A stretch of DNA of 64,000 nucleotides, taken from NCBI RefSeq assembly GCF_029227855.1, contig NZ_CP074356.1. One strand, written 5' to 3'. Shown piece after piece: positions 11,661 to 13,174 of this stretch. The notes under the pieces are model-generated. The model was not told the origin of the DNA and did not search any database. It saw only the letters and a program-made list of their open reading frames with translations. Source of the DNA: Escherichia coli. Its GTDB lineage: Bacteria; Pseudomonadota; Gammaproteobacteria; Enterobacterales; Enterobacteriaceae. Numbering within the stretch: the stretch's first letter is position 1; each line of letters opens with the position of its first letter. The translations under genes were made by a program, and so were the position numbers.

Positions 11661-11837
11661 TTACTGTTGGCGCAGGGTACGGATACCCTCCCTGGCCTGT
11701 TCGATACAGCGCAACAGTGCTGCCGAACCTGTTTTATCCTCATCGTTGTCGAAGATAATTCCCGATTCGCAGTCGATATTGTCCTGCAGCCACGTAATCA
11801 GAATATCCAGCGCTGTTTCCGTGGTTAATGATTTCAT
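11661..11837 (-). CDS. small hypothetical protein (58 aa) downstream of the YeeW-like gene
   Basis: ATG at 11837, 17 bp after the upstream gene's stop; the longer ORF-track version overlaps that gene and is unlikely. Confidence 0.35.
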   Translation of the reverse strand: MKSLTTETALDILITWLQDNIDCESGIIFDNDEDKTGSAALLRCIEQAREGIRTLRQQ

Positions 11838-11853
11838 GTTGTGAATTTCCGGA

Positions 11854-12345
11854 TTACCAGTCGAAAGTGGGTAAACCCGGCAGATATCCGGCACTGGCAT
11901 CCAGATGAATGAGACTGACACCATAACGCCGGATGAGTGTGACGACCAGACGACGGAACGTTTTTGACAGCCCCAGGCGCTTAAGCCGCAGAACCGGGTA
12001 TGACCACGCATCGGTACGTAACAGATAACCGGTACCGGTAAAATGAATCCATTCTGATTCACCGAAGTCACTGGTCTGGTGTGACAGCGAGTACAGCCAG
12101 GCGTTGTCCGTTTCCGTGATATGTGCGGTACTGCAGCGTATGCCGGTAAGGGCAACAAATGGTGGCGTGCAGTCTGCTGAGGTCCGGTCAGATTCATCAA
12201 CAACACGAAGGGAGTAGCCGTTATCGCAGACCATGTTAATCAGTTCAGCGAGATTAACACCATCAATGTCAACGACAATTCGCCCCATATTCAGTGCCTG
12301 TACGTTAACACTGTCGGCTTCCAGTGTCAGGGCCAGTTTCATCAT
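11854..12345 (-). CDS. YeeW-like CP4-type prophage protein
   Basis: Position immediately downstream of and overlapping the CbtA-family toxin gene; N-terminus resembles YeeW-family proteins as recalled. Confidence 0.55.
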
Positions 12346-12716
12346 TTCGCCTCCGGATACTTACCCAGGGTGATATTGTTCACCGTTCTGTAGTTGTGGC
12401 GGGTCATCAGGCCTGTTGCCCGGCGAGCCCGGAGAATATCAATGCTGTTGATTAACTGCGACGAGGCTCCTGCGCTGAATCCCGGCTGGTCAGTTCGTAC
12501 CAGTGCGTATTTTTCCACGAGAAAGTTCACTGCATCACACAGTGAAATGCCTGCCTCAATATGCTGCTCAATCACGCGTTCATCCACGAACGGTGTGTCA
12601 TTCAGCGTAAGGCTGTAATGCTGGTCCAGTAACCGGGTGAGCAGTGTCTGCCAGATGGTGACGGGAGACGGGCAGCACGATACCTCCCGTACATGCGTGT
12701 CGGGTAATGTTTTCAT
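12342..12716 (-). CDS. cbtA: CbtA/YkfI/YpjF-family toxin (type IV toxin-antitoxin)
   Basis: 124 aa with strong similarity to CbtA as recalled (…[53 protein letters not shown]…). Confidence 0.85.
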
Positions 12717-12805
12717 ACTGAAGATTTTCCTGATATGCAGAGATAAAAAATGGGACAGTGGCGTGGTGAAAACACCAGGCCGGAGCAGAAGGTTATTCTG
12801 GTGGT

Positions 12806-13174
12806 TTACTTTTTCGTTTCAGGTGTCGGATAAACAGCCAGATAAACGTAACCACAGGAGCCGAGGGTGTCGGCTTCACAGGTCAGCCCCTTCGCATACA
12901 GTGTCACGGTATGCTGATGGCGGGGATTCAGTTCACCACTGGTGAGCATTAATTTCAGTTGTTTCATCAGCAGCGGAAAGGCCTGGTCCAGAGGGTACGC
13001 ATCCGCATCTCTGAACCGGCCTCTGATACCGGCACGGTCGGCAAGGTAATGCAACCGGTTACCCTCCTGCACCAGACGGGCGCCGAAACAGGGCGTCACT
13101 GTGCAGGGTAGTCCCCACCAGGGATGGTCGTCATTGTCATCGGGATGCGTTGTCCCGGAAAGTGTGTCTGACAC
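12806..13174 (-). CDS. cbeA: CbeA/YeeU-family antitoxin
   Basis: GTG start at 13174 gives a ~122 aa protein matching CbeA as recalled (…[34 protein letters not shown]…). The ORF-track N-terminal extension was rejected. Confidence 0.8.

Follow-up and report, generated by a model that had tools for sequence, protein, structure and literature searches.

The stretch of DNA analyzed here (the window) is 64,000 nt of the Escherichia coli contig NZ_CP074356.1. Four genes lie between positions 11661 and 13174, all intact and all on the minus strand, overlapping or closely spaced and followed on the 3′ side by a terminator-like hairpin. The first is a CbeA/YeeU-family antitoxin gene with a GTG start (12806 to 13174; 122 amino acids [aa]). 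Directly downstream, after an 89-nt spacer, is a CbtA-family toxin gene (12342 to 12716; 124 aa), an order that is the same in all related loci. A full-length DUF5983 (YeeW-type) gene (11854 to 12345; 163 aa) follows, and 16 nt past its stop codon begins a small gene labeled "DUF957" (11661 to 11837; 58 aa). The first-pass annotation had assigned a toxin-antitoxin pair with a YeeW-like gene and small downstream frames to exactly this interval, and all four open reading frames (ORFs) were found there, on the minus strand.

The module is already known, already annotated, and extremely common in E. coli, and it is named correctly in reference genomes. For instance, in E. coli E24377A (NC_009801.1), which is 99.9% identical to the window across 25.4 kb, PGAP annotates the same four coding sequence boundaries (ECE24377A_RS25915 to RS25930) under the names "type IV toxin-antitoxin system YeeU family antitoxin," "TA system toxin CbtA family protein," "DUF5983 family protein," and "DUF957 domain-containing protein," and all four proteins are the same. 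The two sequences differ outside the module, by one base at 13293 that creates a spurious upstream ATG in the window and, outside the island, by the loss of 1 nt from a methyltransferase gene. The island of E24377A is larger than that of the window, and the E24377A annotation of the matching stretch contains no tRNA. Similar DNA was found in 4,987 of the 5,426 complete genomes of E. coli, the median copy number being three, and identical module proteins were found again in many strains. A large E. coli survey (PMC10790755) reported the same high copy number and placed DUF5983 downstream of CbtA in every case. Outside E. coli, species-representative genomes were scanned, and the order RadC-DUF987-CbeA-CbtA-DUF5983-DUF957 is kept in Escherichia albertii, Citrobacter, Edwardsiella, Mixta, Yersinia, Yokenella, and Trabulsiella. 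Near-identical E. coli-type module sequence was also seen on small contigs in Collinsella, Lachnospiraceae, Segatella, and Arthrobacter assemblies; these contigs probably represent contamination or mis-binning.

NCBIfam had no models for any of the four module proteins, PHROGs matched the module proteins only to families of unknown function, PADLOC had no defense-system model for any of the four, and a literature search for a phage defense role of CbtA gave nothing specific. An Rfam scan of positions 10 to 20 kb returned nothing within the module; its sole match was an RNA of the IS102/IsrC type, located upstream of the Ag43 gene. In a promoter scan, there was no minus-strand sigma-70-like site directly upstream of cbeA, and the total number of such sites was not above the shuffled expectation. 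The transcription start is probably further upstream of cbeA. At the other end of the module, a pattern scan picked out the terminator-like hairpin on the minus strand (11586 to 11612), 49 nt past the DUF957 stop codon, and we infer from this that it probably marks the end of the transcription unit.

The antitoxin assignment is supported by several lines of evidence. First, the protein matched the Pfam family PF06154 (CbeA_antitoxin) with an E value of 3.8e-53 (178.7 bits against a cutoff of 27). Second, it aligned from residue 1 with the sequences of the YeeU crystal structures 2INW (E value of 4.7e-75) and 2H28 (6.8e-74), and it also matched the YfjZ structures 2JN7 and 2EA9 with E values of about 1e-41. 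Third, in alignments with the K-12 antitoxins (all K-12 genes used for alignment were taken from NC_000913.3), it was 89% identical to CbeA, 65% identical to YfjZ, and 62% identical to YafW. The GTG start at 13174, which the first-pass annotation had also proposed, stands as well, since the N terminus is that of the crystallized YeeU, PGAP uses the same start (WP_001295723.1), and an AGGA-N7-GTG arrangement of Shine-Dalgarno sequence and start codon is kept in the window, K-12, E. albertii, and one further copy. The sequence farther upstream is not kept.

Mechanical ORF calling extended the antitoxin frame to 162 aa (12806 to 13294). This longer form had been suspected to be an artifact, and it is one; the frame is not conserved. 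Its Pfam domain begins only at residue 58, its ATG is an ACG in E24377A (13293), and the extension passes through a segment that is missing from K-12 CP4-44, from E. albertii, and from another of the compared loci. The origin of this segment could be traced. In strain NT1N25, a 214-aa gene (WP_059239987.1) sits between yeeT and the antitoxin gene, and the extra ∼90 nt found at this place in the window are the 3′ remnant of that gene, 37 codons on the minus strand (13224 to 13337) with 81% identity to the last 37 aa of WP_059239987.1. The spurious 162-aa frame reads through this scar. The 37-aa remnant itself had no Pfam match at E values up to 10.

Upstream of the scar on the minus strand are a DUF987 (YeeT-type) gene (13337 to 13558; Pfam PF06174, E value of 1.5e-40) and a RadC-like JAB (YeeS-type) gene (13621 to 14112; Pfam PF04002, E value of 3.7e-44; NCBIfam TIGR00608), the PGAP start of which corresponds to window position 14097. 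The full upstream order in the window is the Ag43 autotransporter gene, then DUF932, antirestriction, RadC-like JAB, and DUF987 genes, and the order DUF932, antirestriction, RadC, DUF987, antitoxin, and toxin is the backbone of CP4-44, CP4-57, and CP4-6. A frameshifted DUF905 gene was also seen upstream of the module.

The toxin is equally well placed in its family. Residues 1 to 112 matched positions 1 to 112 of the 112-position profile PF06755 (CbtA_toxin) with an E value of 2.5e-60 (201.8 bits against a cutoff of 25), and the protein was 85%, 61%, and 59% identical to K-12 CbtA, YpjF, and YkfI, respectively, so the toxin family proposed from the letters alone holds in the profile match and against all three K-12 toxins. 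PGAP lists the protein as WP_000854765.1. A search of solved-structure sequences with the toxin returned no entries. The alignment of the window toxin with CbtA, YpjF, and YkfI has 60 invariant columns, Phe65 among them, and the dN/dS ratio of the gene is about 0.15.

The YeeW-like gene described in the first-pass annotation as overlapping the toxin stop codon is indeed there, as seen from the ORF coordinates, the Pfam matches, and the alignment with K-12 YeeW. Counted from the annotated ATG, the overlap with the toxin stop codon is 4 nt (ATGA). With a second ATG, which is the one kept in other genera, it is 1 nt (TGATG). The protein has two recognizable parts, an N-terminal domain matching PF25638 (E value of 1.6e-31, 108.2 bits) and a C-terminal domain matching PF19419 (1.7e-21, 76.8 bits; cutoff of 27 in each case). 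Its identity to the 64-aa K-12 YeeW is 71% and is confined to the N-terminal domain, which means that K-12 YeeW is a truncated form of the full-length DUF5983 protein. In all seven taxa beyond E. coli, the DUF5983 gene adjoins cbtA and starts on the toxin stop codon, and its dN/dS ratio is about 0.15. An AF2 model built from a 9-sequence alignment was poor (pLDDT of 58.4), and a Foldseek search of the PDB with this poor model gave no match with an E value below 1.

The 58-aa gene downstream is a real gene with a start of its own, and it is under purifying selection. Every copy compared begins at its own ATG and carries the motif M-x-x-LTTE at the N terminus, the protein is 57 to 88% identical to the copies at eight other loci, and the median dN/dS ratio is about 0.2, a value obtained with synonymous sites near saturation. 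Among the eight diverged loci, the spacer between DUF5983 and DUF957 is 11 to 31 nt. The protein is 58 aa here compared to 62 to 67 aa at other loci, and AF2 predicted a helix-loop-helix (pLDDT of 74.6). Neither the current Pfam nor NCBIfam nor PHROGs gave a match to it at E values up to 10; the label "DUF957" therefore comes from the PGAP name of the identical protein (WP_000839290.1), and homology to other genes so named was seen directly by sequence comparison. Both DUF5983 and DUF957 are real proteins, and their genes are probably cotranscribed with the toxin-antitoxin pair.

The position of the module within a larger element was also determined. The only tRNA gene in the window, found by ARAGORN, is leuX, tRNA-Leu(CAA), on the minus strand (58230 to 58314), and it is the integration site and proximal boundary of the island. 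The distal boundary is a degenerate direct repeat of the leuX 3′ end, attR, on the minus strand (11140 to 11162), which aligns with 58230 to 58252 on the same strand. This copy (GTTTGAGTCCGGCCTTC-GCACCA) agrees with the leuX 3′ end at 22 of 23 bases with one 1-nt gap, and its gapped score of 19 compares to a maximum of 17 among 20 shuffles. Exact and 3-mismatch searches for the leuX 3′ end found leuX itself only, because the 1-nt deletion in the remnant hides it from a search that allows only mismatches, and a generic direct-repeat search of the window gave only IS-related repeats and no att sites. Past attR, there is a terminator-like hairpin (11105 to 11124) with a tail, CTTTTTTTGTGCCT, that is also present after leuX. 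Comparison with other genomes pointed to the same place. The whole junction (10751 to 11660) is common to just 97 genomes, and in other genomes synteny breaks at window position 11141 and at about 11091 to 11097, with many genomes sharing the sequence from there to 11660. Taken together with the attR remnant, these independent breakpoints place the island at about 11140 to 58252, a length of roughly 47 kb, and the module ends (at 11661) some 500 bp short of attR. The three homologous K-12 modules are all 0.2 to 0.6 kb from an annotated prophage boundary. The suggestion that the genes stand at the end of a CP4-type island is thus supported by the leuX remnant, the synteny break at 11141, and the K-12 backbone order. 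Between the module and attR are two pseudogene remnants on the minus strand (11302 to 11555), the 5′ portion of a DUF4942-type gene and the 3′ portion of a gene for an HTH regulator, both of which PGAP calls pseudogenes in E24377A. The homologous DNA underlies intact DUF4942 genes in other genomes, and the two remnants had no Pfam match at E values up to 10.

With a probability that we put at roughly 90%, this locus is an ordinary CP4-44-type CbeA/CbtA toxin-antitoxin module near the distal end of the leuX island of E. coli. How the pair would act can be proposed from work on K-12. Heller et al. (2017, PMC5624674) found that CbtA, YpjF, and YkfI bind FtsZ at its H6/H7 loop, using a toxin surface to which F65 belongs, a residue needed for FtsZ binding in all three toxins. 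The same toxins act on MreB at its flat face, and the blocks to division and to elongation are independent of each other. CbeA, according to an earlier finding summarized in the same paper, does not bind the toxin but attaches to filaments of FtsZ and MreB and bundles them, and it is this neutralization by filament bundling, without binding to the toxin, that gives the system its type IV label. For YfjZ/YpjF and YafW/YkfI, toxicity and neutralization were shown by Wen et al. (2017, PMC5371832). By extension, the 124-aa toxin would bind the H6/H7 loop of FtsZ in a manner dependent on F65, which is conserved here, and it would probably also bind the flat face of MreB, with cell division and elongation blocked as a result. 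The antitoxin would neutralize it by binding filaments of FtsZ and MreB and drawing them into bundles, with no sequestration of the toxin, and the pair would probably help to stabilize the island or aid stress responses. Toxicity, neutralization, and the type IV mode are, for this allele, extrapolated from K-12, and the K-12 mechanism is the best-supported reading given the 85 to 89% identity, the conserved F65, and the intact genes.

One part of the toxin could bear on this mechanism. At position 15, the window toxin has a cysteine, as do YpjF and YkfI, compared to an arginine in K-12 CbtA, and in the surrounding segment (residues 6 to 16), it differs from K-12 CbtA at 9 of 11 positions. In K-12 CbtA, the R15C substitution abolished the interaction with MreB, kept the interaction with FtsZ, and led to filaments (PMC5624674). 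The window toxin, which is CbtA-like overall (85% identity) yet carries C15, could on this ground be an inhibitor of division only, one that through its natural cysteine binds FtsZ and not MreB and yields filaments instead of lemon-shaped cells. We consider this possible but rather unlikely. R15 is not conserved, YpjF and YkfI block elongation with their native C15, YpjF binds MreB despite it, and changing C15 to R had no effect in either toxin (PMC5624674). In addition, the entire segment of residues 6 to 16 differs from K-12, and position 15 taken singly may be uninformative. For the same reasons, namely the lack of conservation of R15 and the absence of any C15R effect in YpjF and YkfI, Cys15 is no argument against membership in the CbtA family. 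What the divergence of residues 6 to 16 does suggest is that the MreB arm of the toxin may be weaker or may rest on other determinants.

A second question is whether the pair is the whole functional unit. DUF5983 and DUF957 might modulate CbtA/CbeA as regulators, triggers, or additional neutralizers, for example by sensing a trigger or controlling toxin release, in which case the unit would be a four-gene system. The linkage is tight. All eight diverged loci have DUF5983 on the toxin stop codon and DUF957 11 to 31 nt later, the survey of E. coli found DUF5983 in no other place than downstream of CbtA (PMC10790755), and both genes are under purifying selection. Such a role would also have been missed, since neither gene is intact in any K-12 copy that has been studied experimentally: YeeW is cut to 64 aa with DUF957 a weak remnant, and CP4-57 and CP4-6 are without both. 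However, the K-12 pairs are toxic and are neutralized without these genes (PMC5371832, PMC5624674), neither a domain nor a fold gives a clue to such a function (the AF2 model being poor and Foldseek giving no match with an E value below 1), and the linkage may merely reflect coinheritance in one island backbone. We therefore treat a modulating role as a tentative and somewhat doubtful proposal. If it is true, the K-12 picture of CbtA/CbeA is incomplete.

That the module is instead a decaying, nonfunctional remnant of an old island is improbable. Its flanks are eroded, with the gene remnants at 11302 to 11555, the scar at 13224 to 13337, a degenerate attR, and a frameshifted DUF905 gene, and DUF957 is shorter here than elsewhere (58 aa compared to 62 to 67 aa), but the four ORFs are intact with full-length profile matches, identical proteins occur in many strains, and the dN/dS ratios are 0.15 to 0.2.

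The last matter is the second long frame reported by mechanical ORF calling, a 181-aa ORF (11661 to 12206) that overlaps the DUF5983 gene. It is the DUF957 frame left open upstream across DUF5983. The first-pass annotation considered it a probable artifact, which is correct for the upstream open frame, since this is not conserved, and incorrect for the last 58 codons, which are the genuine DUF957 gene. As called, the 181-aa ORF is, like the 162-aa ORF, an artifact of mechanical ORF calling. The frame is open for 134 to 135 codons upstream in the window, in one further locus of the window type, and in E. albertii, compared to just 3 to 15 codons in ten other loci, and it is offset relative to DUF5983 by +1 at some loci and by +2 at others. 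Together with the variable spacer, this means that the long open frame is not a conserved feature, and programmed frameshifting or dual coding for the 181-aa ORF was rejected on these comparative grounds (open frame, spacer, and offset). A 2026 preprint raised programmed frameshifting as a possibility for the AntiFam entry ANF00264, which is found beside DUF5983, and noted some DUF5983-ANF00264 fusion proteins in databases; we infer that ANF00264 may be the same family as DUF957. It is nevertheless very improbable that programmed ribosomal frameshifting adds DUF957 to the C terminus of DUF5983, with the 181-aa frame as its trace, for although those fusions and the frame open for 134 to 135 codons in the window and E. 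albertii would fit, the ten other loci are open for only 3 to 15 codons, the spacer (11 to 31 nt) and the offset (+1 or +2) vary by locus, and each DUF957 copy has its own conserved ATG and M-x-x-LTTE motif.

Several practical gains follow from the analysis. The gene starts are confirmed, two spurious long ORFs are removed, and DUF957 is shown to be real. If ANF00264 is the DUF957 family, the evidence for a DUF957 gene bears on the question that the preprint posed for that entry. With its distal boundary fixed at about 11140, the leuX island is set apart from a neighboring restriction/defense gene cluster. Two small points may be new, namely the Cys15 of the toxin and the absence or truncation of DUF5983 and DUF957 in every experimentally tested K-12 system.

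Among the K-12 systems, the closest is the CbeA (YeeU)/CbtA (YeeV)/YeeW module of CP4-44. It has the same RadC-DUF987-antitoxin-toxin-YeeW order downstream of the Ag43 gene, its antitoxin and toxin have the same lengths as those of the window (122 and 124 aa) and are 89% and 85% identical to them, respectively, and the antitoxin GTG and Shine-Dalgarno sequence are the same. The antitoxin-toxin spacer is similar (about 88 to 89 nt), the toxin stop codon overlaps the yeeW start, and the module is near the end of the element, as in the window. There are also differences. YeeW of CP4-44 is cut to 64 aa and its DUF957 is a weak remnant, whereas both are intact in the window; CP4-44 does not have the ∼90-nt gene remnant between yeeT and the antitoxin gene; residues 6 to 16 of the toxin, including the change of R15 to C, have diverged; and the window element is inserted at leuX and not at the CP4-44 site. 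The other two pairs, YfjZ/YpjF of CP4-57 and YafW/YkfI of CP4-6, are more distant. They belong to the same two Pfam families, have antirestriction-RadC-DUF987 genes upstream, and are located at a prophage boundary, and YpjF and YkfI share both F65 and Cys15 with the window toxin. However, their proteins are just 59 to 65% identical to those of the window and are shorter, with an antitoxin that lacks the 14-aa N-terminal tail and a toxin that lacks the C-terminal tail. The antitoxin-toxin spacer in these two systems is 20 nt compared to 89 nt in the window, and they have no DUF5983 and DUF957 genes downstream.

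Although the toxin of the module is CbtA-like over the rest of its sequence, its residues 6 to 16 are diverged, and codon 15 (12672-12674, minus strand) encodes Cys. In K-12 CbtA, the R15C substitution abolishes MreB binding. The DUF957 product (11661-11837, minus strand) is 58 aa long compared to 62 to 67 aa in eight other loci; the allele in the window stops early (…TLRQQ*), without the C-terminal LQLLQQ-type tail. In K-12, yeeW (7441-7734 of the CP4-44 locus, L003) seems to have arisen through an internal deletion, in which the C-terminal domain of DUF5983 would have been lost along with the initial half of DUF957. 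There, the 64-aa yeeW is followed by a weak DUF957 remnant (residues 36 to 57, 59% identity). In the window, a gene remnant lies between yeeT and the antitoxin gene: a 37-codon ORF at 13224-13337 (minus strand), overlapping the yeeT stop (TGATG), is the C-terminal end of a 214-aa gene (WP_059239987.1; no match in Pfam) that strain NT1N25 carries between yeeT and yeeU. Of 5426 E. coli genomes, 2878 contain this remnant segment. E. coli-type cbtA/DUF5983/DUF957 sequence, 81 to 100% identical, was also recovered on short contigs of assemblies assigned to Collinsella, Lachnospiraceae, Segatella copri, and Arthrobacter (loci L006, L007, L008, L017, L018, and L019), most likely reflecting contamination or mis-binning in these public assemblies.

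The distal limit of the leuX island is marked by a degenerate leuX 3′ repeat (attR) at 11140-11162 (minus strand) which, together with a leuX-like terminator at 11105-11124 (minus strand), delimits this end. Because the repeat contains a 1-nt deletion, a mismatch-only search for the leuX 3′ end fails to detect it. Beyond attR, immediately outside the island, is a restriction/defense-type cluster (1334-10750, minus strand) consisting of genes for a DrmD-like SNF2 helicase (7859-10750; PADLOC DrmD, 1.3e-199), a large, split type III-like DNA methyltransferase (4717-7853), and a type III restriction endonuclease-like DEAD/DEAH helicase (1334-4714). In E24377A, a gene for a phosphorothioated-DNA-binding restriction endonuclease spans the point equivalent to the window start, and the methyltransferase is one uninterrupted 3123-nt CDS, whereas in the window it is two ORFs (4717-6399 and 6474-7853) due to a 1-nt deletion at about 6480 relative to E24377A. 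This deletion could be a true frameshift or a sequencing error, or it could reflect phase variation.

Inside the island, a DUF905 gene (about 15864-16059, minus strand) lies between the Ag43 and DUF932 genes; the annotation of the near-identical E24377A sequence lists it as a pseudogene with a frameshift. The gene for the Ag43/Cah autotransporter (mechanical ORF 16130-19051; PGAP start equivalent to 18976) has a match to the IsrC-type small RNA IS102 upstream of it (18995-19231, minus strand; Rfam, 73.6 bits, E = 4e-11), the same arrangement as isrC-flu of K-12 CP4-44. The island also carries the ferric-citrate uptake operon fecIRABCDE (32625-40170, plus strand) and several IS elements and remnants, with IS-related repeats at about 26.8 to 57 kb. 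It presumably resembles the KpLE2 region of K-12, and E24377A has a larger version of the leuX island that likewise resembles the one in the window.
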